From sequence record HM035024: DNA of 50,661 nucleotides; one strand, given 5' to 3'. The position numbers were made by a program, and so were the translations under genes. Shown piece by piece: positions 2,709 to 37,296 of this stretch (the stretch's first letter is position 1; each line of letters begins with the position of its first letter). Below the pieces are notes generated by a model. That model was not told where the DNA came from, did no database searches, and was given only the letters and a program-made list of their open reading frames with translations. The stretch is from Shigella phage Shfl1.

Positions 2709-2900
2709 ATGTCTGATTTTATGCACCAAATGATTGCAGTATTCAAAGGCAGTGATGATGAGGAGGTTAAAGAGTGCTTTAACGTTGACAAGTCTTATAA
2801 CGCGTCACTAACCAGCTTTGGTAATATCTCATTGCTTGATGATAATGGCGATCCCTGGATATTCGACGAAGACACTGATTGCTTCGAGATTAAAGAATAG
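2709..2900 (+). CDS. hypothetical acidic protein (63 aa)
   Basis: ORF with AGGA RBS; Asp/Glu-rich. Confidence 0.45.
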   Translation: MSDFMHQMIAVFKGSDDEEVKECFNVDKSYNASLTSFGNISLLDDNGDPWIFDEDTDCFEIKE

Positions 2901-2916
2901 CACTTTTTGTTAAAAC
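2897..2916 (+). promoter_or_regulatory. conserved motif ATAGCACTTTTTGTTAAAAC with TATAGT 18 nt downstream
   Basis: TATAGT 2935-2940 inside inverted repeat GGGGTT/AACCCC. Confidence 0.5.
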
Positions 2917-2970
2917 TCAATATCGGGGTTGCGATATAGTAACCCCATCAACAACGAACGAGGATTTATC

Positions 2971-3177
2971 ATGAAACTGCGGTGCATTGAATCAAATCAA
3001 ATTAACTACTCAGAAGGCTTCGAATATGTCGCTCAAATCGATAGCTTTACAAACAAAAACGGAGAGGTTATTGATGTGGTTCATGGAGTGTATACGTGGT
3101 TCTACTTTGACAAGAAAGCGCTAACAGCAACTAAGCGCAATGGTGATGTGGTGGCTAAATTTAAACGTGAACAATGA
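2971..3177 (+). CDS. hypothetical protein (68 aa)
   Basis: Start trimmed to ATG at 2971, preceded by CGAGGA RBS and conserved CATCAACAACGAA leader. Confidence 0.5.
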   Translation: MKLRCIESNQINYSEGFEYVAQIDSFTNKNGEVIDVVHGVYTWFYFDKKALTATKRNGDVVAKFKREQ

Positions 3178-4296: not shown

Positions 4297-4316
4297 ACAG
4301 CACGAATTGCTAAACC
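4297..4316 (+). promoter_or_regulatory. conserved motif variant ACAGCACGAATTGCTAAACC with TATAGT 18 nt downstream
   Basis: TGaTATAGT 4335-4340 inside inverted repeat AAGGCCA/TGGCCTT. Confidence 0.5.
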
Positions 4317-4380
4317 TTCCGCAAGGCCATTTGATATAGTGGCCTTATTGAAGCACGGCAACCAATCAGAGGAATTAGCT

Positions 4381-5641: not shown

Positions 5642-5860
5642 ATGGCTACTATCATGACAGCAGAAGATGCAGCACACGATGCAGTGGAAGGGATGCGCCC
5701 AAATAGCTCCAGAATCGCCCACTACTACAAATCTGATGTGTCGGCAGTGCAATTGGTCCATGAAATTTTAAGGCTCCCACAAGTCGATTCAGCGCGCGTG
5801 GTGACGTGCTTAAAAAATTATTTTTGCATCACTATTAAAACGAATAGCACGAATTGCTAA
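5642..5860 (+). CDS. hypothetical protein (72 aa), doubtful
   Basis: ORF only; its 3' end runs through the conserved promoter motif at 5844. Confidence 0.25.
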   Translation: MATIMTAEDAAHDAVEGMRPNSSRIAHYYKSDVSAVQLVHEILRLPQVDSARVVTCLKNYFCITIKTNSTNC

Positions 5861-5863
5861 AAC
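5844..5863 (+). promoter_or_regulatory. conserved motif ATAGCACGAATTGCTAAAAC with TATGAT 18 nt downstream
   Basis: TATGAT 5882-5887 inside inverted repeat AGGGGAAT/ATTCCCCT. Confidence 0.5.
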
Positions 5864-5917
5864 CTATCAAGGGGAATGCGCTATGATTCCCCTACACCAA
5901 CAAACGAGGAATCACCA

Positions 5918-6364
5918 ATGAAACACTTAATTTGCATTGAAACGCCTAACGATGAATACACTCTTCACGGCATAGGAATGTTCAAAGGTCACTACATGAC
6001 AGCAAGTATTCATGATGCGCGTCTTTGCGATGGCGATCTGATGATTACGTCAAAAGAAGTAAATCCGTACATTATGCAGAATCTTGGCAATAACGAATAT
6101 ATGGCCTACGGCTGCAACGCCGTGTACAAGCATATCAAGATCCGCAAGCGTGTCGTGCGTGCATTCAAGAAGATTGCAATGAAATACTGGAAGATGAGCA
6201 AGAAGGACGCCGGACGCTGGGCGCGCAATGTTGCTGACTCGTACTTCTATCGTAACGGTGAGTCCTGCTACTTCCTGATCGATGAAATTATGGAAAACTA
6301 CGGTGGCGACTTCAGTCAGTGTAACTTTGACGATTGGGCTGACTATGAGATCAGTTGTTGGTGA
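5918..6364 (+). CDS. hypothetical protein (148 aa)
   Basis: Start trimmed to ATG 5918 after ACGAGGAA RBS and conserved leader. Confidence 0.55.
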   Translation: MKHLICIETPNDEYTLHGIGMFKGHYMTASIHDARLCDGDLMITSKEVNPYIMQNLGNNEYMAYGCNAVYKHIKIRKRVVRAFKKIAMKYWKMSKKDAGRWARNVADSYFYRNGESCYFLIDEIMENYGGDFSQCNFDDWADYEISCW

Positions 6365-6383
6365 TAGCACGAATTGCTAAAAC
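6364..6383 (+). promoter_or_regulatory. conserved motif ATAGCACGAATTGCTAAAAC with TAGAAT 18 nt downstream
   Basis: TGtTAGAAT 6402-6407 inside inverted repeat AAGGGCATT/AATGCCCTT. Confidence 0.5.
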
Positions 6384-6446
6384 TTGCTCAAGGGCATTTG
6401 TTAGAATGCCCTTCGTTGAGTTAAGCAACCAATCAGAGGAATCAAT

Positions 6447-26401: not shown

Positions 26402-29400
26402 ATGATTCAAAAAGTGATAAGCGGATCGAAAGGCGGTTCACCTAAGCCGCATAAGCCAGTTGAGATGGAAGATAATCTAATCTCAATCAACAAAATCAAG
26501 ATCCTGTTAGCTGTGTCTGATGGCGAGATTGACGAAACATTCAGCCTAAAGCAGTTGATGTTTAACTCAGTCCCGGTGCAAAACGAGGATGGCTCATTTA
26601 ACTTCGAGGGAGTAAAGGCAGAGTTTAGGCCGGGGACGCAGACTCAGGAATATATCAAGGGGATGGAAGATAGCTCTAGTGAGGTAACTGTAAACCGTGA
26701 GGTTACTACAGATAACCCATACACGATCTCAGTAACCAACAAAACACTTTCGGCAATCCGTATCAAAATGTTTATGCCTCGCGGCGTACGAATTGAAAGC
26801 AACGGTGATAAAAACGGCGTAAGAGTTGAGTATGAGGTGCAACAAGCTGTTGATGGCGGCTCGTTTGAGACGGTGCTCACCGATGTAATCGAAGGCAAAA
26901 CAATGTCAGGTTACGATCGAAGCAGACGTGTAAACCTACCTAACTTCAATAATCAGGTGATATTCAGAGTCGTTCGTAAAACTCCAGACTCTAAAGACTC
27001 GAACGTTGTTGACGCGATTCAAGTAAAGAGCTATGCCGAGGTGATTGATGCTAAATTCCGTTACCCTCTGACTGGTCTTCTTTTTGTCGAGTTCGATTCG
27101 AAGATGTTCCCAAACCAGTTGCCTACGATCTCAATTCGTAAGCGCTGGAAGATTGTAAACGTTCCGTCAAACTATGATCCAGAATCGCGAACTTATAACG
27201 GAAATTGGGATGGAACTTTTAAGAAGGCGTGGACGAATAATCCGGCTTGGGTGCTTTATGACCTGATGATTAATCAGCGTTATGGGCTGGATCAGAAAGA
27301 GCTTGGAATATCTGTCGATAAATGGGCGCTATATGAGGCGGCGCAATATTGCGATCAGATGGTTCCTGACGGTAAAGGCGGTACGGAGCCTCGCTACCTT
27401 TGTGACGTGATAATTCAGTCACAGACTGATGCGTACAAGGTGATTCGAGATATTTGCTCAATCTTCCGTGGCATGAGCTTTTGGAATGGTGAAAGCATTT
27501 CGGTAATCATCGACAGGCCGCGTGAACCTGCGTACATCTTCACTAACGACAACGTGGTTAATGGTGACTTCTCCTACACGTTCGCAAGCGAAAAGAGCAT
27601 GTACACGACGTGTAATGTGATGTTTGATGATGAACAAAACATGTATCAGCAGGACGTTGAGCCAGTATTCGATCGTGAGGCTACTCTACGTTTTGGGAAC
27701 AACGTAACGAGTATTACAGCGATCGGTTGCACACGTCGAAGCGAGGCCAACCGACGCGGGAGGTGGATTCTGAAAACTAACCTCCGCAGCACTACGGTAA
27801 ACTTCGCTACCGGACTTGAGGGCATGATCCCGACAATCGGAGATGTTGTAGCAATAGCTGATAACTTCTGGTCAAGTAACTTGACGATGAACCTGTCAGG
27901 GCGTTTGCTCGAAGTATCCGGTAGTCAGATTTTCCTGCCGTTCCGCGTTGATGCTCGCGCAGGTGACTTTATTATCGTAAATAAGCCCGATGGTAATCCC
28001 GTGAAGCGCACAATCTCAAGTGTTAGTGCGGATGGTAAGACTATAGAGGTTAACATCGGCTTTGGCTTTCCTGTGAAGCCTAACACGGTATTCGCAATCG
28101 ACCGTACCGACATTGCGTTGCAGCAGTACGTCGTGACCAAAATCGACAAGGGTGATGATGATGAAGAGTTTACCTACAAGATTACTGCGGTTGAGTACGA
28201 TCCTAACAAGTACGATGAGATTGATTACGGAGTTAACATCGACGACCGACCGACGAGCATCGTTGAGCCAGATCAGATCCCTAAACCGGAAAACGTGCAG
28301 GTGTCCTCAGAGTCGAGAATCGTCCAGGGTATGAGCGTAGAAACGATGATTGTTAGCTGGGATAAAGTGCCGTACGCAGTTTTCTATGACGTCCAGTGGC
28401 GAAAGGATAACGGCAACTGGCAGAACGTTCCGCAGACGGCAAACAAAGAGGTTTACGTTGAAGGGATTTACGCTGGAAACTATCAGGTTCGCGTTCGATC
28501 TGTAGCTGGCTCAGGTACGACTTCAGGATGGTCAAATATCGTAGCTGCGACGCTGACGGGTAAACAAGGTGAGCCGGGACGACCTATTAACCTTACAGCT
28601 ACGGATGATGTTGTTTTTGGTATCCGTACAAAATGGGGGTTCTCTGATGGTTCTGGAGATACGGCCTATACAGAGTTGCAACAGTCACCGGATGGAACAG
28701 TGGATAACGCAAGTTTGCTTTCTTTGATTCCGTACCCGCAGCATGAGTATTATCACTCACCGATGCCTGGAGGGAATATTGTGTGGTATAGGGTAAGGAC
28801 GGTTGACAGGATCGGTAACGTGTCTCAGTGGACTGATTTTGTCAGAGGTATGGCATCAACAAACGTTGACGATATCATCGGAGAGATTTCTGTCGATATC
28901 GAAAACTCGCCGGGTTACGAGTGGCTTGTTGATAACGCAACAGACAACGCGGCGCAGAACGCAGCTAACGCAGAGGCAGCAATAGAAAACGCGCTCGCCA
29001 ATGACAAAGACGCGATCTACATGAAGAAGGAGAACGGAAAACGAAAAGCTGAGTACACGAAATCACTTAAACTTATTGCTGATGAGACGCAGGCGCGAGT
29101 GACGTCGATCGAGCAGTTGAAGGCAAGTTTTGACGATCAGATTAGCGCAAGCAATAGCGAATTGCGTGAAGTTATAGCGACTGAGACTGGAGCGCTATCG
29201 CGTGAAATTGACCAACTCAAGGCAGAGATTGGTGATGATATCCAGGCAAGTTTGACTGATATCAGAGAGGCTATAGCAAACGAGACTGAGGCGAGAACGC
29301 AAGCTGACTTGTCGTTAAGCGCGAGGCTCGGGAATAATGAGGCGGCACTTTCTCAAAAACTTGATTCGTGGAGTAACGCGGATTCGACTGGTGCAATGTA

Positions 29401-29851
29401 CGGCGTCAAATTGGGTCTTAAATACAACGGGCAGGAATACAGCGCAGGCATGGCTATGTCTCTGATTGGTTCCGGCGCTGCGGTTAAGGCTCAGATTTTA
29501 TTTGAGGCATCACGATTTGCCATCATGACTGGAATGAATGGTCAGACGCAGTACCCATTCGTTGTTGAGAATGGCCAGGTTATTCTAAGTAGCGCGATCA
29601 TCAAGGATGGATTTATTACTAACGCCATGATTGGTAACGCGATTCAGTCTAACAATTGGGATGGAAATCAAGGGTGGCATATTAACAAGAATGGCGCAGC
29701 TTACTTCATGAACGCAACCGTAAGAGGTGCTTTGTATGCAAATAACGGAGCCTTTGCATTCAACGGGACAAACAATACGGTTCAGATAAACAATAACGGG
29801 ATCACGGTTAACCTACCTAACGGTGGACGAGTGGTTGTTGGTGTATGGTAA
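26402..29851 (+). CDS. central tail fibre / host specificity protein (lambda gpJ-like)
   Basis: 1149 aa; last large gene of tail cluster; fibronectin-III-like segments; Gly/Asn-rich C-terminal region. Confidence 0.8.
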   Translation: MIQKVISGSKGGSPKPHKPVEMEDNLISINKIKILLAVSDGEIDETFSLKQLMFNSVPVQNEDGSFNFEGVKAEFRPGTQTQEYIKGMEDSSSEVTVNREVTTDNPYTISVTNKTLSAIRIKMFMPRGVRIESNGDKNGVRVEYEVQQAVDGGSFETVLTDVIEGKTMSGYDRSRRVNLPNFNNQVIFRVVRKTPDSKDSNVVDAIQVKSYAEVIDAKFRYPLTGLLFVEFDSKMFPNQLPTISIRKRWKIVNVPSNYDPESRTYNGNWDGTFKKAWTNNPAWVLYDLMINQRYGLDQKELGISVDKWALYEAAQYCDQMVPDGKGGTEPRYLCDVIIQSQTDAYKVIRDICSIFRGMSFWNGESISVIIDRPREPAYIFTNDNVVNGDFSYTFASEKSMYTTCNVMFDDEQNMYQQDVEPVFDREATLRFGNNVTSITAIGCTRRSEANRRGRWILKTNLRSTTVNFATGLEGMIPTIGDVVAIADNFWSSNLTMNLSGRLLEVSGSQIFLPFRVDARAGDFIIVNKPDGNPVKRTISSVSADGKTIEVNIGFGFPVKPNTVFAIDRTDIALQQYVVTKIDKGDDDEEFTYKITAVEYDPNKYDEIDYGVNIDDRPTSIVEPDQIPKPENVQVSSESRIVQGMSVETMIVSWDKVPYAVFYDVQWRKDNGNWQNVPQTANKEVYVEGIYAGNYQVRVRSVAGSGTTSGWSNIVAATLTGKQGEPGRPINLTATDDVVFGIRTKWGFSDGSGDTAYTELQQSPDGTVDNASLLSLIPYPQHEYYHSPMPGGNIVWYRVRTVDRIGNVSQWTDFVRGMASTNVDDIIGEISVDIENSPGYEWLVDNATDNAAQNAANAEAAIENALANDKDAIYMKKENGKRKAEYTKSLKLIADETQARVTSIEQLKASFDDQISASNSELREVIATETGALSREIDQLKAEIGDDIQASLTDIREAIANETEARTQADLSLSARLGNNEAALSQKLDSWSNADSTGAMYGVKLGLKYNGQEYSAGMAMSLIGSGAAVKAQILFEASRFAIMTGMNGQTQYPFVVENGQVILSSAIIKDGFITNAMIGNAIQSNNWDGNQGWHINKNGAAYFMNATVRGALYANNGAFAFNGTNNTVQINNNGITVNLPNGGRVVVGVW

Positions 29852-29854
29852 CAG

Positions 29855-29880
29855 AAAGGGGCCGATTGGCCCCTTTTTTA
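29855..29880. terminator. bidirectional intrinsic terminator between convergent gpJ-like and receptor-binding-protein genes
   Basis: GGGGCC-GATT-GGCCCC flanked by A-run and T-run. Confidence 0.65.
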
Positions 29881-30843
29881 ATACATGTTTGGAGTGAAAG
29901 GAATTGGCATTGAAATGTTTATATTGAAGGGGAATCGCGCTCCGCTTTGGGTGGAATAGTTACCTACTCTTGTTCCGGGGGCGCTTCTCACGTTACCGCC
30001 ACTCATACACACGCCCTTGTATCGAATGTTATTATATCCACCTGTAACTCTGCATATTGTACCAGTTCTAAGTATTGGGAAAAATCCACCGCACCACTGC
30101 CACCCGTCATTTATCGCCATAGTCCCGCCGAGAACAAAAGGACGTCGAACGATTGAGAAAACAATCTGACCAGCAGGATTGCTCATAGTGATTCCAGGGC
30201 CGGGAGGTGGTGGGGTGTTATTAAATATTACGAGTTGAACGTATACGCTCGCGCCAACGTCATCAATACCGTTATAGTTTGCGTCTCTGCACCATATTGT
30301 ATTCCCGTCAGATTCAAGTGTTACATTTGGGTTATCCCACATACCGAAAGGAACACCCTGGACTGGCAACTGAGCCTGACCGTTAACCTGGATGCCTCCA
30401 ACAAATGCCGCACTCATCAACCTGGCGTTATTCGGTATCGCCGCGAAGTTCGTTGAATCGCTAACAAGCATCCCCTGATTTCCAGCCTGGGCGGGGAGAA
30501 TTTCGTAACAGTTGCCGTAAAACCTCATCCTTCTTCCACCATGACCGTTAAAATTACCTACCGTTATTCTCCCGGTTGAATCATTAACCTTCTGAAAGCT
30601 GGTTAAATAATACACCTCCGGGATATAATCCATGTCGTCTATGTAGATAGCCTGAGATGGAAGGCAAAAAGCGGTAGATCCTGGACTCATTTGCAGACCA
30701 AAATCAAAAACCGATCCAGATGAATCAACCCCGTCCGCTTGTATTGGTCCGCACCATGAAGGGGCGCGAAGTCCAGAGGTTATCTCCATTGCCGGACGAC
30801 CGTCATTTAGGTTTATGTATATTCCTTGTCCCATAATTACCAC
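29878..30843 (-). CDS. putative receptor-binding protein
   Basis: 321 aa Gly/Asn-rich protein convergent on gpJ-like gene and co-transcribed with a small lipoprotein, an arrangement like T5 pb5-llp; no catalytic motif. Confidence 0.35.
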   Translation of the reverse strand: MVIMGQGIYINLNDGRPAMEITSGLRAPSWCGPIQADGVDSSGSVFDFGLQMSPGSTAFCLPSQAIYIDDMDYIPEVYYLTSFQKVNDSTGRITVGNFNGHGGRRMRFYGNCYEILPAQAGNQGMLVSDSTNFAAIPNNARLMSAAFVGGIQVNGQAQLPVQGVPFGMWDNPNVTLESDGNTIWCRDANYNGIDDVGASVYVQLVIFNNTPPPPGPGITMSNPAGQIVFSIVRRPFVLGGTMAINDGWQWCGGFFPILRTGTICRVTGGYNNIRYKGVCMSGGNVRSAPGTRVGNYSTQSGARFPFNINISMPIPFTPNMY

Positions 30844-33426: not shown

Positions 33427-33840
33427 ATGCATATTATCACTGGCGAGATCCGAAAAGAGCCTAAGATTCTTGAACGTAATGGCGGGAATACTTATATAAT
33501 CGAACTGGCAGAAAGCTACAAGCCTCGTGATGGCGATCGCGAATACACAAACTACACATTCTTTTTTAGCGATGGTGGAAAGCCTGGTCTTGCTGACTGG
33601 TATCGTGAAGCATTCCAGGTTGGTCGCGTAGTGTCAGTATCGTGCGAGACGTTGAAGATCTCATCCCGTGAGCACAACGGAAATGTTTACAATTCATTGC
33701 AGGCTGCTGATTTTCCGAAACTGGTATTCAGTCAACGAGGTCAAGGTAATCAACAACGAGCACCGCAGCAACAACAACGAACGCAATCACAGCCACAGCC
33801 AAATCCTCAATCAACTTTCGATGATGATATCCCGTTCTAA
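33427..33840 (+). CDS. ssb: single-stranded DNA-binding protein
   Basis: OB-fold-sized N-terminal domain, Gln/Pro-rich linker and acidic C-terminal tail DDDIPF. Confidence 0.65.
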   Translation: MHIITGEIRKEPKILERNGGNTYIIELAESYKPRDGDREYTNYTFFFSDGGKPGLADWYREAFQVGRVVSVSCETLKISSREHNGNVYNSLQAADFPKLVFSQRGQGNQQRAPQQQQRTQSQPQPNPQSTFDDDIPF

Positions 33841-33844
33841 CAAA

Positions 33845-33872
33845 AATCCCCGCATTGCGGGGATTTTATCAT
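33845..33872. terminator. bidirectional intrinsic terminator between convergent ssb and tail fibre genes
   Basis: ATCCCCGC-ATT-GCGGGGAT flanked by A-run and T-run. Confidence 0.65.
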
Positions 33873-35653
33873 TTGGACTTCAACATTTTTATCTCTTCTT
33901 GTAACTCTTCAACTTTCTTTATTGTATCCTGCAAAGCTCTCATAGTGTCAAGCAATAAAGGAGTTGTATCAAGCTCAAGCCTTTCAACTTTTGGCCCGTT
34001 TAGCTCGTGGCTCTCATACAACCTTCTCTTAACATATAGATTGTCGATCTCTTCTATCTCCTGAGCTATAACACCTCGCCTTACCCTTTCTTGCTCATCA
34101 TCGTTAAATATAAAGTTCCTAAATCTCATTGATTTTATATTGTTGTATGCAATGCTTGATTCATCATCCTTTATGCTGTGCTTTATATTTCTGTCAGATG
34201 CCGGAACTTGTTGGAAACTTCCAGCCCCTTGCGGTCCAGCGTAAGATATTTGCCCTGAAGCCATAAACCTGAAATGCATTTGCAGACCAATATTGCCTGC
34301 TCCATCCCTATCTTGAGCACCTACTGATATTTGTGCCCTGGGCCATTCAGGATTGCCCGTAGTCATCATGCCAAAAGCTACGCCGCCAACGTACCCTTGC
34401 CCCCTCGTATCACACGATCCAGCAACAAGCGATTGATAGTTTTCAGCACCACTATCGGCGGTGAAAGCATTTCCTTGAAAGCATGAAGCGGACCACATCT
34501 GGTTATAACCCATAGTTGTTTTCTGGCATAAAAACTGATTGGATCTGAATCTATTGTTAGTCTCGAAGTAGTTTGCATATTCGTAAAATAATAAAGTCCC
34601 AGCATATCCATCACTGCCATTTTTTTTTCTGACGTAAATCCCTGGCTCAGACACTCCATCAGGTGACATAATCATCAATGATGACAATATGGACTGACTA
34701 CCCCAGTTAGAACCGTCCCATGAGTTCCTTCCTGCACCTATAGCCCCGGTGGTGTTAATAGTAAGAAAGTTAACAGCATCATTTTCACCTAACCCAATAT
34801 TTTTTCTAGACTCTTTTTTGTTCACAAGACCAGAGAGATTACCATCCTTAGTTAAAAGATTATCGGCATTAATGCTATTAGCTGCGTCTTTAGCTTCTTG
34901 AGCGCTTACCGAAGCCGCATCTTTTGATCTTACGGCATCGTCACGCGCTGCCTGAGCATCGTTTTTTGCAGAGGTTGCCGTTTGCGCTGCCGTTTGAGCG
35001 TCGTTAACGTAAACCGATAAATCACCTTTAGCATCATTAATTGCCTGAATAGCCGAAGCCTCTTCCGTGTCGATGTGAGAGATGACAGATGATTCCTTAG
35101 AGCCGATATCAGTGATAGCCTGATCTTTTGCGGCATTAATTCCACCGACAGCACTGTCAACAATCTGCTGTGTCTGATTCTTGATTGAGTTAGTTTCATC
35201 ACGCGCAGCGTTGGCTGCGTCACGCGCTAATTCAGCCTGATTTTGCGCAGCTTGAGAATCAGATTTCGCCTTATTCACATCAGCAACTATTTGCTCAAGT
35301 TTATTCATATCAAGCTGATTTATCAGATCTATAGCTGCCGCGATCTCAGTCTCTTTGCTTTGATAGTATCGAAGCGTCTCGGCAACGTTTTGAGCTAAGC
35401 CGTTAACAGTTAACGAATCGTTAAGCAAGATCACATACTTTCCGTCAGATGCGGTCTGACCATCCGTAGAGATAGCCTTTAGCTCTGTGTCGCTCACAAT
35501 ATCGCTAATTACAGCCAGCTTAATTGGTTGCTCCAGGAATACGATAGTTGCACCGACTCGAATCAGAGCAAGCTGATCTTTCCATTTTGTATCTGTTCCG
35601 TGAACCGTACCGTCTGCATCCATTGATGCAGTACCGCGTCTGTATAAAGCCAT
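33869..35653 (-). CDS. tail fibre protein with C-terminal intramolecular chaperone (peptidase S74-like) domain
   Basis: 594 aa; C-terminal segment ...SDRNIKHSIKD...LLDTMRALQDTIKKVEELQEEIKMLK matches auto-cleaving chaperone domains of endosialidase and T5 L-shaped fibres; Ala/Gln/Asp-rich coiled stalk. Confidence 0.75.
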   Translation of the reverse strand: MALYRRGTASMDADGTVHGTDTKWKDQLALIRVGATIVFLEQPIKLAVISDIVSDTELKAISTDGQTASDGKYVILLNDSLTVNGLAQNVAETLRYYQSKETEIAAAIDLINQLDMNKLEQIVADVNKAKSDSQAAQNQAELARDAANAARDETNSIKNQTQQIVDSAVGGINAAKDQAITDIGSKESSVISHIDTEEASAIQAINDAKGDLSVYVNDAQTAAQTATSAKNDAQAARDDAVRSKDAASVSAQEAKDAANSINADNLLTKDGNLSGLVNKKESRKNIGLGENDAVNFLTINTTGAIGAGRNSWDGSNWGSQSILSSLMIMSPDGVSEPGIYVRKKNGSDGYAGTLLFYEYANYFETNNRFRSNQFLCQKTTMGYNQMWSASCFQGNAFTADSGAENYQSLVAGSCDTRGQGYVGGVAFGMMTTGNPEWPRAQISVGAQDRDGAGNIGLQMHFRFMASGQISYAGPQGAGSFQQVPASDRNIKHSIKDDESSIAYNNIKSMRFRNFIFNDDEQERVRRGVIAQEIEEIDNLYVKRRLYESHELNGPKVERLELDTTPLLLDTMRALQDTIKKVEELQEEIKMLKSK

Positions 35654-35673
35654 AGTATAAACTCCTTAAGTAA

Positions 35674-35715
35674 ATAGCACGAATTGCTAAACAATGATTT
35701 TATCATTGTGCTATC
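35674..35715. promoter_or_regulatory. inverted pair of motif copies between tail fibre start and primase stop
   Basis: ATAGCACGAATTGCTAAAC followed by AATGATTTTATCATTGTGCTAT. Confidence 0.35.
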
Positions 35716-35729
35716 TGACTTGCAATGGA

Positions 35730-35756
35730 CAATAAAAAACCGCCAGAAGGCGGTTA
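35730..35756 (-). terminator. intrinsic terminator after primase (minus strand)
   Basis: Minus strand AACCGCCTTCTGGCGGTT followed by T6. Confidence 0.6.
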
Positions 35757-36689
35757 GAGTAGGTCACTCGCTGAGAATAACTTGGCTTGCATCCCTGAGC
35801 GGTATCCTCCATGATTTGGGATGATTATTTTTAATTGTCGGTCGTCTGCCATGTATAAAGTCTCCTTGTCTGAAGGTTCGCACGCAACCCTTACTTCTCG
35901 ATCCCCTTTATATCTGTATGCAACCATTTCCAGATTCTCAGGAGTGAAGCAGGCCCATACCTCTTGCTTTGTGTGAAATGCAATATGCTGAGCATCAATC
36001 CAATTAAGGCATAAGTAGATCGCTTTTTCTGTTTTACCAGTCACGGCAACCGAACAACTCGTATATTTCTTAGCGTAAAACGATTCCCTTCCTTCTTCAT
36101 CAATAATCAAAATATTGCAAAACTCGTCATCAAGACCGTCCTCGTGTACAAGTTGACACGGGATAGTGTGAAATACGCTCTCCCTGCCATCATCGCGACG
36201 TTTTACGCCAACGTCGAATGATTCAGTTGGTAGAGATTCAAACATGCTTAGAGGTGTGTTTACGCGCTTCTCTGTGCGCTCCATTACTTTCATCACTTCT
36301 TCATGATCTGCCATCATCACATTGACACCAGACACCGGAGTCCTGCGTGCTTTCTTGTTTGCCTTGACGATGTATTCCTGAGGGACTTTTCCGAGAAATC
36401 TTCCCAGGATGTTTATGCAATCGCTATACGGCATACCAGTTAACTTCATCAACCAACCGATCCCGGAGTCGTTACCGCATGAGTTGCAGATCGCACCGCC
36501 GTCTCCTGGAGTGTTCAGATTATCAGTCCAGCGAAAGCGGTCTTTACCTCCGCAGTTAGGGCAAGGTTGGTGCTTCTTGTTGAAAACCTCGTTAGGTAAT
36601 CCGCATACGGACTGGAACGCCTCGCGCCATAACCCATTCATATACGGCAATACGTCCTCTTTCTGAAACATCATAAATTCTTCGTTCAC
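35754..36689 (-). CDS. DNA primase (zinc-ribbon plus Toprim-like)
   Basis: N-terminal CPNCGGKDRFRW...GGAICNSCG matches the primase-helicase zinc-binding domain; GTG start with GGAG RBS. Confidence 0.6.
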   Translation of the reverse strand: MNEEFMMFQKEDVLPYMNGLWREAFQSVCGLPNEVFNKKHQPCPNCGGKDRFRWTDNLNTPGDGGAICNSCGNDSGIGWLMKLTGMPYSDCINILGRFLGKVPQEYIVKANKKARRTPVSGVNVMMADHEEVMKVMERTEKRVNTPLSMFESLPTESFDVGVKRRDDGRESVFHTIPCQLVHEDGLDDEFCNILIIDEEGRESFYAKKYTSCSVAVTGKTEKAIYLCLNWIDAQHIAFHTKQEVWACFTPENLEMVAYRYKGDREVRVACEPSDKETLYMADDRQLKIIIPNHGGYRSGMQAKLFSASDLL

Positions 36690-36746: not shown

Positions 36747-36766
36747 GTTTTAACTAAAAATGCTAT
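36747..36766 (-). promoter_or_regulatory. conserved motif (minus orientation) overlapping 3' end of HTH regulator gene
   Basis: Reverse complement reads ATAGCATTTTTAGTTAAAAC. Confidence 0.4.
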
Positions 36767-37202
36767 TGGTCGTCCCGATATCTTCCTTCTTCACCACTCG
36801 CATAAACTTCTTGTTCTTGCATCGCTTCTCTAGGCACTTGCCGTTACCGTCAAACTTGAGGTCGAATCGCAACCATGCGGCGCGGAATCCTTTACAACCC
36901 TGACGACGGTAAGCACGATGTGCAGCTTCAGCACCTTGCCACGAAATCATGTTGCGCTCCTTCCATCCCTGCACGGTCTGATTGCTAACTTTCAGAGCCT
37001 TTGCGCAGGCCGCAGGGCCGCCATAATATTCGATAAGAGCATCAAGTCTCGCTCTCAGTCCGGCGCGTGTTTCTTCTTTATGGATATAGAAACCGCAGCG
37101 TTGGCGTGGCTTTTTATCTTTACCGCGTCTCGTTCCGTTGTTACCATTGATGTGACGTTTATCGATTTCACCAGTTGACTCTGCGATGCGTTGCATATTC
37201 AT
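36750..37202 (-). CDS. putative HTH DNA-binding regulator (Cro/YdaS-like)
   Basis: GGPAACAKALKVSNQTVQGWKERNMISWQ resembles Cro/YdaS-type helix-turn-helix; basic N-terminus; start trimmed to ATG 37202 (AGGAG RBS). Confidence 0.4.
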   Translation of the reverse strand: MNMQRIAESTGEIDKRHINGNNGTRRGKDKKPRQRCGFYIHKEETRAGLRARLDALIEYYGGPAACAKALKVSNQTVQGWKERNMISWQGAEAAHRAYRRQGCKGFRAAWLRFDLKFDGNGKCLEKRCKNKKFMRVVKKEDIGTTNSIFS

Positions 37203-37214
37203 CTTAATTCTCCT

Positions 37215-37235
37215 GTAGCACTTTTTGCTAAAAAC
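37215..37235 (+). promoter_or_regulatory. conserved motif GTAGCACTTTTTGCTAAAAAC upstream of helicase, divergent from HTH regulator gene
   Basis: TATTAT about 18 nt downstream (37253-37258). Confidence 0.45.
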
Positions 37236-37296
37236 GTTTACTGTATGTCGTGTATTATAGCGTAAACGATACAATGATTCAAAGGATTAAATAGCC

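Follow-up and report, generated by a model that had tools for sequence, protein, structure and literature searches.

Modular organization of a probable lateral tail fibre in the T1-like Shigella phage Shfl1

We found that the minus-strand gene between the ssb-like and primase genes of Shigella phage Shfl1 very probably encodes the lateral (side) tail fibre of this T1-like siphovirus, a modular protein whose tip and chaperone are exchanged as a unit. The window, i.e. the whole stretch of DNA analysed, is the complete 50,661-bp genome of Shfl1 (Tunavirus, Drexlerviridae). We assigned the fibre four modules by sequence comparison and modelling: an anchor, an alpha-helical stalk of ~145 residues, a variable tip and, at the C-terminus, an S74-type chaperone that contains the Ser486/Lys491 dyad (Table 1). 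Earlier publications already cover the fibre gene, where it lies, which domains it encodes and how its modules evolve; the finding is correct, not new.

The first-pass annotation had called an ORF of 594 aa at 33869-35653 on the minus strand, and this was borne out, with an ATG start. We found the product to be 100% identical to the 'putative tail fiber' of Shigella phage Shfl1 at NCBI and to match PHROG 1980 (tail fiber) with an E-value of 5.5e-99. The accompanying claim, that the protein is a tail fibre with a self-cleaving chaperone domain, agrees with Pfam, the PHROG tail-fibre families, the alignment to DT57C, the invariant Ser486 and Lys491, and the fold matches.

Table 1. Features of the fibre locus, with positions counted from the first base of the window
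Feature	Position	Strand	Basis or remark
ssb-like gene, left neighbour	33427-33840	+	SSB-type tail DDDIPF; annotated ssb in relatives
Bidirectional intrinsic terminator, common to ssb (+) and fibre (-)	33843-33867	both	Perfect 12+12 palindrome
Exchangeable cassette, tip plus chaperone	33868-34824	-	Unrelated sequence in T1 and JMPW1 (blastn)
Probable lateral tail fibre gene, 594 aa plus stop	33869-35653	-	ORF list, ATG start
Peptidase_S74 intramolecular chaperone (predicted auto-processing), codons 486-594	33872-34198	-	PF13884; long C-terminal helix
Codons Ser486-Lys491 (SDRNIK), predicted catalytic dyad; predicted scissile bond between Ala485 and Ser486	34181-34198	-	
Gly/Ser/Asn-rich distal region, presumed receptor-binding tip, codons 276-485	34199-34828	-	Composition
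Ala/Asp/Gln-rich alpha-helical coiled stalk, codons 121-275	34829-35293	-	Composition, AF2, periodicity
Conserved N-terminal anchor, codons 1-120	35294-35653	-	Beta-rich domain 1-77, then helix 86-113 (AF2)
Shine-Dalgarno AAGGAG	35662-35667	-	8 nt upstream of ATG; invariant in five phages
T1-like direct repeat copy ATAGCACGAATTGCTAAA	35674-35691	+	Perfect; antisense to fibre, between -10 element and Shine-Dalgarno
Fibre promoter-like site	35697-35725	-	TTGCAA, 17 nt, TAAAAT, TG at extended -10
Primase terminator, upstream of fibre unit	35738-35755	-	-12 kcal/mol, z -5.6, then TTTTTT
Primase gene, right neighbour	35754-36689	-	Primase zinc ribbon

An exchangeable cassette had also been proposed, and a comparison of the locus among relatives, suggested as a way of finding mosaic boundaries, placed these at the terminator end (33867) and at codons 277-285. 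With blastn, homology to Shfl1 ends at 33867, which is both the last base of the terminator and the left cassette boundary, and resumes at 34825 in T1 or 34801 in JMPW1, i.e. at codons 277-285. Beyond these codons T1 (728 aa) and JMPW1 (615 aa) have a tip and C-terminus unrelated to those of Shfl1. Among the top 120 homologues, identity falls from ~96% at residues 1-100 to ~40% after residues 280-300, and one third of them cannot be aligned in the tip; stalk identity among homologues is 65-80%. We found the anchor in 846 phage records (identity 93-100% within Tunavirus, 50-72% outside that genus) and the tip in only 44, which comprise a Tunavirus subset and Dhillonvirus at 49-58%. In homologues the same anchor carries S74, gp37_trimer plus S74, Phage_tail_C_2 or pectate-lyase modules. 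Hence, in these alignments, tip and chaperone are exchanged as a unit between the terminator and the stalk/tip junction.

Other members of Tunavirus share the setting of the gene. The T1 fibre ST26 and the 'tail fiber' genes of phiL, Sfin-1 (CDS61), pSf-2 and JMPW1/2 have the same locus, strand, upstream leader and bidirectional terminator, with anchors 93-100% identical to that of Shfl1. In phiL, Sfin-1 and pSf-2 the whole protein is 91-98% identical to the Shfl1 fibre (93.6% for the Sfin-1 orthologue).

The tip had been described as an Asn/Gly/Ser-rich distal domain, and residues 276-485 indeed contain 14% G, 10% S, 9% A and 8% N. A profile search matched DT57C LtfA (E 2e-33) to the final ~80 residues of the tip plus the IMC only; the single-sequence match to LtfA begins at residue 464. 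T5 pb1 and DT57C LtfA (4UW7/4UW8, 8HQZ) share with Shfl1 the homologous end of the tip and, at the C-terminus, an IMC whose dyad has S(+5)K spacing. Their length is about double, their shafts and anchors differ from those of Shfl1, and most of the Shfl1 tip has no detectable sequence similarity to them. The AF2 monomer of residues 270-594 gave the tip a pLDDT below 50, too low to classify its fold. What points to a T5-like tip is the ~80-residue profile match together with published multimer models of 57%-identical relatives. BASEL phage proteins Bas07 Gp36 (JakobBernoulli, Drexlerviridae) and Bas85 Gp29 (RuthEpting, Dhillonvirus) begin with a coiled coil and end in an IMC, with a T5-like tip between them (PMC11990801). 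Bas83-85 have tips with 56-58% identity to Shfl1 residues 276-485; these phages are members of another genus and probably differ from Shfl1 in receptor specificity.

By analogy with BASEL, Cronobacter and Webervirus phages, the tip would bind reversibly to a glycan of the cell surface, for which O-antigen or LPS is the likeliest candidate. Such binding would help the phage cross the O-antigen/LPS layer, after which the gpJ-associated RBP, encoded downstream of gpJ, would engage the terminal receptor. Because the tip would bind glycan reversibly and the gpJ-associated RBP would engage the terminal receptor, we infer that the fibre modulates host range and is not its sole determinant. The lateral fibres of Bas83-85 are O16-targeting and facultative (Humolli 2025, PMC11990801), two residues change the O-serotype range of a Cronobacter Drexlerviridae fibre (CRES7/9; PMC12090712), and Webervirus ICA-type RBPs bind O-antigen and self-cleave, the cleavage being suggested by SDS-PAGE (PMC13463945). 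For the Drexlerviridae studied by Maffei 2021, glycan binding was never directly demonstrated (PMC8594841).

As for presence in the virion, the homologue in TLS has been assigned to a structural protein of 78 kDa and is related to the fibre of T5 (PMC11447400). The Sfin-1 orthologue, listed with pfam13884, was detected by LC-MS/MS of purified phage with 10% coverage (PMC6714547). Since that preparation also held non-structural proteins and the fibre coverage was only 10%, the Sfin-1 virion evidence is weak.

Alternatively, the fibre may be a largely dispensable accessory, or may bind the LPS core or another glycan, with little influence on host range, which the gpJ-associated RBP would set. 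Some phages that were isolated on rough K-12 hosts have the same tip (~90% identical), and the receptor may therefore be something other than O-antigen; near-identical tips are found across phages from rough K-12, BL21 or rfaD-mutant hosts. Also in keeping with dispensability, vB_SsoS_008 has its fibre gene annotated in two parts, the L013 ORF reaches no more than 272 aa, and Eco_BIFF lacks 34950-35217, an in-frame deletion of 93 stalk codons. Moreover, the BASEL authors call O-antigen binding facultative, and the DUF6453 and lipoprotein genes downstream of gpJ form a separate RBP-type locus. However, the fibre locus diversifies rapidly between conserved flanks, which is a signature of selection on receptor recognition, and the related fibres cited above change O-serotype range with two residues (Cronobacter) or bind O-antigen (ICA-type RBPs). 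On balance, we consider this alternative unlikely and favour a fibre that modulates host range.

The C-terminal segment had been read as an S74-type chaperone, and we found that PF13884 matches residues 486-536 above its gathering cut-off (E 9e-8; 32.7 bits vs 22), with the SDRNIKHSIKD motif starting at residue 486. A profile check against S74 chaperone domains, which had been recommended, likewise returned homology, both through Pfam and through matches to IMC-bearing chains (8HQZ_d, 7DC3, 8JOV, 6F45 and 3GUD). In the AF2 monomer, residues 497-594 have a pLDDT of 70-87 and include a terminal helix of 31 residues. The top Foldseek matches of the chaperone model are 7DC3, 3GUD and 3GW6, all chaperone domains, and the only matches with E below 0.03 are 7DC3 (E 2e-4, TM 0.52-0.55 on target) and 3GUD. 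The domain makes up the last 109 residues, directly after the tip; its profile score, Ser/Lys dyad, monomer-model fold and C-terminal position are those of an S74/IMC domain. The ICA domains of K1F endosialidase (3GW6), the GA-1 neck appendage (3GUD) and MyRF (7DC3) have the Pfam family, the fold matches and the dyad in common with it, but their passengers are unrelated: a sialidase beta-propeller/beta-helix in K1F, the appendage in GA-1 and a eukaryotic transcription factor in MyRF.

All 30 homologues compared have Ser486 and Lys491, even with tips as little as 23% identical, and in a sequence alignment these two residues line up with the Ser and Lys of DT57C LtfA (T5-like L-shaped fibre; 8HQZ_d). 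Their S(+5)K spacing equals that of Ser1264/Lys1269, the dyad of T5 pb1, in which the Thr1263-Ser1264 bond is cleaved and the receptor site is masked while the chaperone is uncleaved (PMC4690869). T5 pb1 is the model for cleavage and glycan-site unmasking. By analogy with T5 pb1, K1F endosialidase and Webervirus, three fibre chains would trimerise and the chaperone would template the folding of the tip; after the tip has folded, the dyad would cut between Ala485 and Ser486. This cut would free the chaperone, predicted at 13.0 kDa of the full-length 64.5 kDa, and the mature fibre (predicted 51.5 kDa) would remain part of the virion, its receptor site now exposed. On this analogy, we infer that the Shfl1 chaperone is released autoproteolytically after folding.

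It is very unlikely that the chaperone is instead kept or catalytically inactive, so that the virion bears the uncleaved 64.5-kDa protein. The Sfin-1 table does give the full-length predicted mass only; however, the dyad is invariant even beside such divergent tips, its spacing is identical to that in T5, related Webervirus RBPs migrate as cleaved products, and an uncleaved chaperone masks the receptor site of T5.

The stalk had been described as a long Ala/Gln/Asp-rich coil, and this held: residues 121-275 contain 22% A, 12% D, 10% S, 8% Q and 8% N, the AF2 model has a single unbroken helix at 116-260 (pLDDT 83-97), and the hydrophobic period of 3.55-3.6 residues was matched by only 2 of 1000 shuffles. 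The N-terminal model resembles generic small beta-barrels; Foldseek against the PDB found nothing below E 0.04 for it, with tailspike N-termini only at E ~0.2. In sequence, the anchor shares ~70% identity with the N-terminal parts of 7LZJ and 7VYV, two depolymerases of Klebsiella siphophages. Across the Webervirus (Klebsiella siphophage) proteins DpK2 (7LZJ), Depo32 (7VYV) and cluster I RBPs, the homologous anchor is 57-70% identical; the cluster I O-antigen RBPs end in a self-cleaving ICA domain, whereas the depolymerases have a lyase-type beta-helix in place of the fibre tip.

We regard it as highly improbable that the Shfl1 protein is itself a tailspike with depolymerase activity, as are the Klebsiella phage proteins with which it has the N-terminus in common. 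Its best PDB sequence matches are 'Depolymerase' entries (7LZJ, 7VYV and 7VZ3), and some same-anchor homologues, e.g. P0081, have a pectate-lyase-like domain, but the similarity to 7LZJ and 7VYV covers only residues 1-178 (anchor plus first part of the stalk), a Pfam search found no lyase or beta-helix domain in the 594-aa protein, and the C-terminal part matches fibre-type S74 proteins.

The gene had been reported ~4 kb from the tail genes, on the opposite strand and between ssb and primase, and this was accurate: the gpJ homologue ends at 29851, ~4.0 kb from the fibre gene. The left neighbour has no Pfam match and is labelled ssb because of its DDDIPF tail and its annotation in relatives. 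We found this locus in 64 phage records. The same fibre position and orientation occur in T1, in TLS (another subfamily) and in groups A-C of 80 viral contigs, among which Klebsiella-phage-type loci differ in ssb orientation; in Webervirus genomes the ssb-like gene lies upstream on the fibre strand, whereas it is convergent with the fibre gene in Shfl1. The T1 record already annotates the same layout, including terminators on both strands at the same place, and the lateral-fibre locus has been described as variable, lying between recombination genes and primase/helicase, conserved only at its 5' end and flanked by fully syntenic sequence (Maffei 2021, PMC8594841). In the genomes compared, a position between ssb and primase, with its own promoter-like site and flanking terminators, is the norm for Tunavirus- and Tlsvirus-type genomes; placement of the fibre gene apart from the tail module is not unusual but the family norm. 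A recently translocated or acquired cassette in a position peculiar to Shfl1, as its ~4-kb distance from gpJ, opposite strand and replication and recombination neighbours might suggest, is refuted by the same arrangement in T1, TLS and groups A-C of the 80 contigs and by the published synteny of the flanks, and can be dismissed.

The bidirectional terminator claimed to flank the fibre gene has perfect 12-nt arms and T-runs on both sides, with folding energies of -17.6 and -17.7 kcal/mol (z -4.4 and -3.9) for its two strands. On the upstream side, the primase terminator is kept in relatives and is predicted to isolate the fibre transcription unit. A consensus scan found the promoter-like site TTGCAA-17-TGaTAAAAT, which is invariant in T1, JMPW1, Eco_BIFF and SsoS_008, with the equivalent CAATGnTAnAAT in distant lineages; promoter-like sites in the region are no commoner than in shuffles, and this one is conserved nonetheless. 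Hence, the primase terminator, the conserved promoter-like site and the downstream terminator support, at the level of sequence, the proposal that the fibre gene is separately regulated. Rfam and tRNA scans of the whole genome found nothing.

The leader had been said to contain an inverted pair of motif copies (35674-35715), and only one half of this pair stood. The plus-strand element at 35674-35691 is a true copy of a repeat with 15 copies genome-wide (18 nt, up to 3 mismatches) against 0.05 expected; this is the known 21-nt T1-like direct repeat, described by the TLS authors, who list its function as an open question (PMC11447400). The minus-strand element at 35697-35714 is not a copy: it has mismatches at 8 of 18 positions and shares only ATAGCAC, a heptamer that relatives do not conserve (GTATCAC in T1, GTGGCAC in ISF002). 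The element is the conserved extended -10 region of the putative fibre promoter, CAATGATAAAAT. The true copy lies 34-39 nt upstream of the fibre ATG in all 12 Tunavirus-type loci and in ~15 more distant loci; the locus comparison did not find it in TLS-like and Klebsiella-phage loci.

We rejected further candidate elements in the leader. The 7-5-7 palindrome ACAATGA-TTTTA-TCATTGT (35691-35709) is discounted as an operator, its arms not being conserved in JMPW1, Eco_BIFF and SsoS_008. The copy at 35674 is not a sense promoter towards primase, as 20 nt downstream of it Shfl1 has TATCTG and relatives have TACCTG or TACCCG, hexamers that do not resemble a -10 element. A leader RNA hairpin from the repeat folds at -3.8 kcal/mol (z 0.1), which is not significant.

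Elsewhere in the genome, extended -10 promoters, one of them at 6364, have the repeat at about -50 to -33, and copies sit exactly 20 nt upstream of -10-like hexamers, often within covarying hairpins. In the fibre leader, the repeat covers or lies just downstream of the predicted fibre transcription start, near 35690. It is conceivable, though we think it improbable, that the antisense leader repeat is a regulatory switch, at which the same factor, for which the Cro-like protein at 36750-37274 is a candidate, could activate transcription elsewhere and block that of the fibre gene, or which could act through RNA complementarity. If so, fibre synthesis would be timed oppositely to the repeat-driven genes, and the direct repeat would gain a function.

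The analysis adds no new fibre biology, and its practical value is modest. The base-level boundaries of the cassette (33867/33868 and codons 277-285) could be of use for designing fibre swaps in T1-like phages of Shigella and E. coli that are considered for therapy or biocontrol.

We found that the 594-aa ORF lies on the minus strand at exactly the position claimed by the first-pass annotation (33869-35653), and its product matches, at 100% identity, the protein-database entry for the 'putative tail fiber' of Shigella phage Shfl1. By megablast, the fibre locus matched 64 phage records, all T1-like siphoviruses of Escherichia or Shigella (Tunavirus, Drexlerviridae), in which three genes are annotated alike (ssb or hypothetical, tail fiber, DNA primase). 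Hence, the window is a complete, published and annotated phage genome. As a whole, the protein falls into tail-fibre families of the PHROGs (best E 5.5e-99). The compositions described for its parts held: Ala makes up 22% and Asp 12% of the Ala/Gln/Asp-rich stalk (residues 121-275), and the Asn/Gly/Ser-rich distal domain (276-485) contains 14% Gly, 10% Ser and 8% Asn. AlphaFold2 modelled residues 1-300 as a small beta-rich domain (1-77) and one helix (116-260) at pLDDT 83-97. The hydrophobic period of this helix is 3.55-3.6 residues, reached by 2 of 1000 shuffles, and the predicted helix and its periodicity agree with a coiled stalk.

Four independent lines concur that the C-terminus is an intramolecular chaperone. 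Pfam Peptidase_S74 covers residues 486-536 (32.7 bits; curated cut-off 22), and the motif SDRNIKHSIKD begins at residue 486. The C-terminus aligns with LtfA, the L-shaped fibre of the T5-like phage DT57C (8HQZ_d; E 4e-11 with a single sequence and 2e-33 with a profile), such that Ser486 and Lys491 pair with the LtfA Ser and Lys. Both residues are invariant in 30 homologues, with tip identity down to 23%. For the AlphaFold2 model of residues 497-594 (pLDDT 70-87), the only significant fold matches are solved chaperone domains (MyRF ICA 7DC3 and GA-1 3GUD), and the next match is the endosialidase 3GW6. Thr1263-Ser1264 is the bond cut in T5 pb1, where Lys1269 acts as the base; O-antigen binding is masked as long as the chaperone stays uncleaved (PMC4690869). 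By analogy, the predicted Ala485|Ser486 cut in the Shfl1 fibre would leave a mature fibre of 51.5 kDa and free a 13.0-kDa domain.

The neighbours are also as claimed, with the tail protein gpJ (26402-29851) apart from the fibre gene, an exonuclease, Erf and an SSB-like ORF whose last residues are DDDIPF on the left, and a primase with a zinc ribbon on the right. The SSB-like ORF, 33427-33840 (+), has a Gln/Pro-rich linker followed by FDDDIPF, an acidic tip of the kind that typically ends bacterial SSBs; a Pfam search at E 0.001 or better gave zero matches for it, and relatives variously label its equivalent ssb or hypothetical. The palindrome of the bidirectional terminator is perfect (12+12) and folds at about -17.6 kcal/mol whichever strand is taken, and the terminator on the primase side has -12 kcal/mol and z -5.6. 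After the latter come, in turn, an extended -10 promoter-like site (TTGCAA-17-TGaTAAAAT), AAGGAG and the fibre ATG. In T1, JMPW1, Eco_BIFF and SsoS_008, conservation of this leader is 96%, and distant lineages repeat the same order of elements. Hence, with a primase terminator and its own promoter-like site upstream and a bidirectional terminator downstream, the fibre gene is predicted to be a monocistronic unit, and the proposed separate regulation is upheld on sequence grounds.

The same leader had been said to hold an inverted pair of motif copies at 35674-35715. One member is real, 35674-35691 (+) being a perfect copy of ATAGCACGAATTGCTAAA, and the second is no copy: it has only ATAGCAC in common with the repeat, relatives vary in this heptamer, and what occupies the site is the extended -10 region, which is conserved. 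In the window, ATAGCACGAATTGCTAAA occurs 15 times at up to 3 mismatches vs 0.05 expected; T1 has 7 copies in its first 10 kb, and TLS has 20 by a degenerate pattern. They are the published 21-nt direct repeat of TLS, T1, Rtp and Rogue1, aaATAGCACnnnTTGnTAAAA; the authors of that report list its function as an open question (PMC11447400).

Among the 15 near-consensus copies, the fibre-leader copy is antisense and all others lie on the strand of the local genes. In 12/12 Tunavirus-type loci, the start of the leader copy is upstream of the fibre ATG by 38 nt, and in about 15 loci of lineages with primases only 59-75% identical it is upstream by 34-39 nt; its distance to the ATG is kept near-fixed, and that to the -10 varies (5 or about 10 nt). 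Among the anchor-bearing loci compared, it is absent from TLS-like and Klebsiella-phage-type leaders. Another copy, 36766 (-), lies inside the 3' end of an ORF upstream of the primase, 36750-37274 (-), which has a weak P22_Cro-like helix-turn-helix match (23.3 bits vs a cut-off of 30.2) and corresponds to the annotated 'transcriptional regulator' of T1 (ST23) and TLS. Speculatively, this Cro-like ORF is a candidate binder of the repeat.

In the sense copies, TAnnnT follows the repeat at exactly 20 nt in 11/15 cases in Shfl1 and 11/20 in TLS (binomial P ~1e-17 and ~1e-15, respectively); five further TLS copies have CATAAT there, and TGn precedes many of these hexamers. With this spacing, the repeat spans about -50 to -33 in putative extended -10 promoters. 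The repeat's internal TTGnTA is 23 nt from the hexamer, which is too far off for a -35 element. When Shfl1 and TLS are searched with the degenerate pattern at no more than 3 mismatches, a -10-like hexamer follows 36 copies. Of these copies, 18 have the hexamer within a 10-12-nt loop on a 5-12-bp stem, the arms of which differ from copy to copy yet remain complementary (AAGGCC/GGCCTT, AGGGGA/TCCCCT, GGGATA/TATCCC, TAAGGCAC/GTGCCTTG and others). The mean best stem is 4.83 bp vs 3.39 bp with partners swapped between copies (maximum 4.06 in 200 swaps). An Rfam scan of the window matched no family, and the transcriptional-elements section of the TLS paper mentions neither the 20-nt spacing nor hairpins (PMC11447400).

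Positions of terminators, repeat copies and hairpins in the window, and anchor-bearing viral contigs (L numbers) with the antisense leader copy
Feature	Position or locus	Strand	Remarks
Bidirectional terminator	33843-33867	both	
Primase terminator	35738-35755		
Direct repeat ATAGCACnnnTTGnTAAA, first bases	1000, 1736, 2897, 3674, 4297, 5844, 6364, 7861, 37215, 39725, 40748, 42736	+	and others
Direct repeat, first bases	46886, 47402, 48518, 49131, 49548	-	and others; the repeat also occurs in TLS (L006) and T1 (L005)
Antisense leader copy, loci with copy	L007-L018, L031, L032, L034, L044, L045, L053, L062, L067, L068, L077, L078, L081, L082, L085, L086		leaders upstream of position 3001
Hairpin copies, examples	4297-4360, 5844-5905, 6364-6425, 1000-1060, 2897-2957	+	
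Hairpin copies, examples	46886-46825, 48518-48457	-	
Hairpin copies, examples in TLS (L006)	4061, 5136, 1523		

The position of the fibre gene apart from the tail genes is not unusual: T1, TLS and many relatives share the layout. In its reference record, T1 is annotated with this arrangement too, terminators on both strands included. TLS belongs to another subfamily and matches in the order and orientations of ssb, stf, priA, regulator and helA. Across 80 anchor-bearing viral contigs, the primase is upstream of the fibre in Tunavirus-type, TLS-type and a third group of loci, and in these groups the ssb homologue is convergent downstream of the fibre wherever detected. In Klebsiella-phage-type loci, the ssb-like gene is upstream of the fibre on the same strand; hence, a place between ssb and primase, convergent with ssb, is not family-universal. 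There, the ssb-like ORF is 44% identical and about 240 nt upstream of the fibre (L033, L035-L043, L047, L049, L051, L054-L061 etc.), the 3' end of a primase-like gene is about 2.9 kb upstream, and the fibres have 690 to >1100 aa. Directly downstream of gpJ in Shfl1, on the opposite strand, are a DUF6453 protein (29878-30843 (-), E 5e-126) and a small phage lipoprotein (30837-31199 (-), PF24052). This pair resembles the 'bona fide RBP locus plus superinfection-exclusion lipoprotein' that the BASEL paper ties to terminal-receptor choice (PMC8594841); T1 differs in carrying ST32, ST31 and cor.

The fibre reading is supported; the feature is already known and annotated, as a lateral tail fibre in its normal family position, and earlier publications describe it. 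Maffei et al. 2021 reported a very diverse Drexlerviridae lateral-fibre locus with conserved syntenic flanks (recombination genes and primase/helicase) and a large fibre gene alike among genomes at its 5' end only (PMC8594841). In the structures that Humolli et al. 2025 (PMC11990801) predicted for Bas07 Gp36 and Bas85 Gp29, a coiled coil forms the N-terminus, the tip is T5-like and an IMC domain lies at the C-terminus; the same study showed that Bas83-85 make facultative use of O16-targeting lateral fibres. The Sfin-1 orthologue carries pfam13884, was compared residue by residue with Shfl1 CDS53 and was found by LC-MS/MS in purified phage (PMC6714547). The TLS homologue was assigned to a structural protein of 78 kDa, a relative of the T5 fibre (PMC11447400), Webervirus ICA-type RBPs self-cleave and bind O-antigen (PMC13463945), and two residues shift the O-serotype range of a Cronobacter Drexlerviridae fibre (PMC12090712). 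The first-pass observation is confirmed, except for the second motif copy.

Comparison of the locus among relatives shows mosaic edges and bears out an exchangeable cassette with definable boundaries. In the 120 best homologues, identity is about 96% over residues 1-100, 65-80% through the stalk and about 40% after residues 280-300, where one-third of the proteins cannot be aligned. The DNA of T1 and JMPW1 matches the window at about 87-91% identity as far as 33867, the final base of the terminator palindrome, and is then unrelated until homology restarts at 34825 (T1) or 34801 (JMPW1), i.e. at fibre codons 277-285. By tblastn, the anchor (residues 1-120) was found in 846 phage records, with Klebsiella, Escherichia, Shigella, Salmonella, Citrobacter, Enterobacter, Cronobacter and Pantoea as hosts, and the tip (276-485) in only 44, a Tunavirus subset plus members of a different genus, Dhillonvirus, with tips 49-58% identical to that of Shfl1. 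Other C-termini on the same anchor are S74 tips of other lengths, gp37_trimer plus S74, Phage_tail_C_2 and a pectate-lyase-like domain; the similarity of the Klebsiella phage depolymerases 7LZJ and 7VYV to the Shfl1 fibre is restricted to residues 1-178.

In Eco_BIFF (L003), 93 stalk codons are deleted in frame (window 34950-35217). The FCWL1 fibre (501 aa) likewise is without 93 coiled-stalk codons, those of JMPW2 and SH2 have 518 aa, and stalk length differs among otherwise near-identical fibres (among them L010 and L011). These differences suggest that repeat-mediated deletions in the Ala/Asp/Gln-rich stalk are tolerated. In vB_SsoS_008 (L002 1981-3739), the annotation divides the fibre gene into two CDSs, the primase is split too, and translation from the conserved fibre start gives an ORF of only 272 aa (L013). 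The split fibre reflects either a sequencing error or a natural disruption. If naturally disrupted, the vB_SsoS_008 fibre would fit a facultative role.
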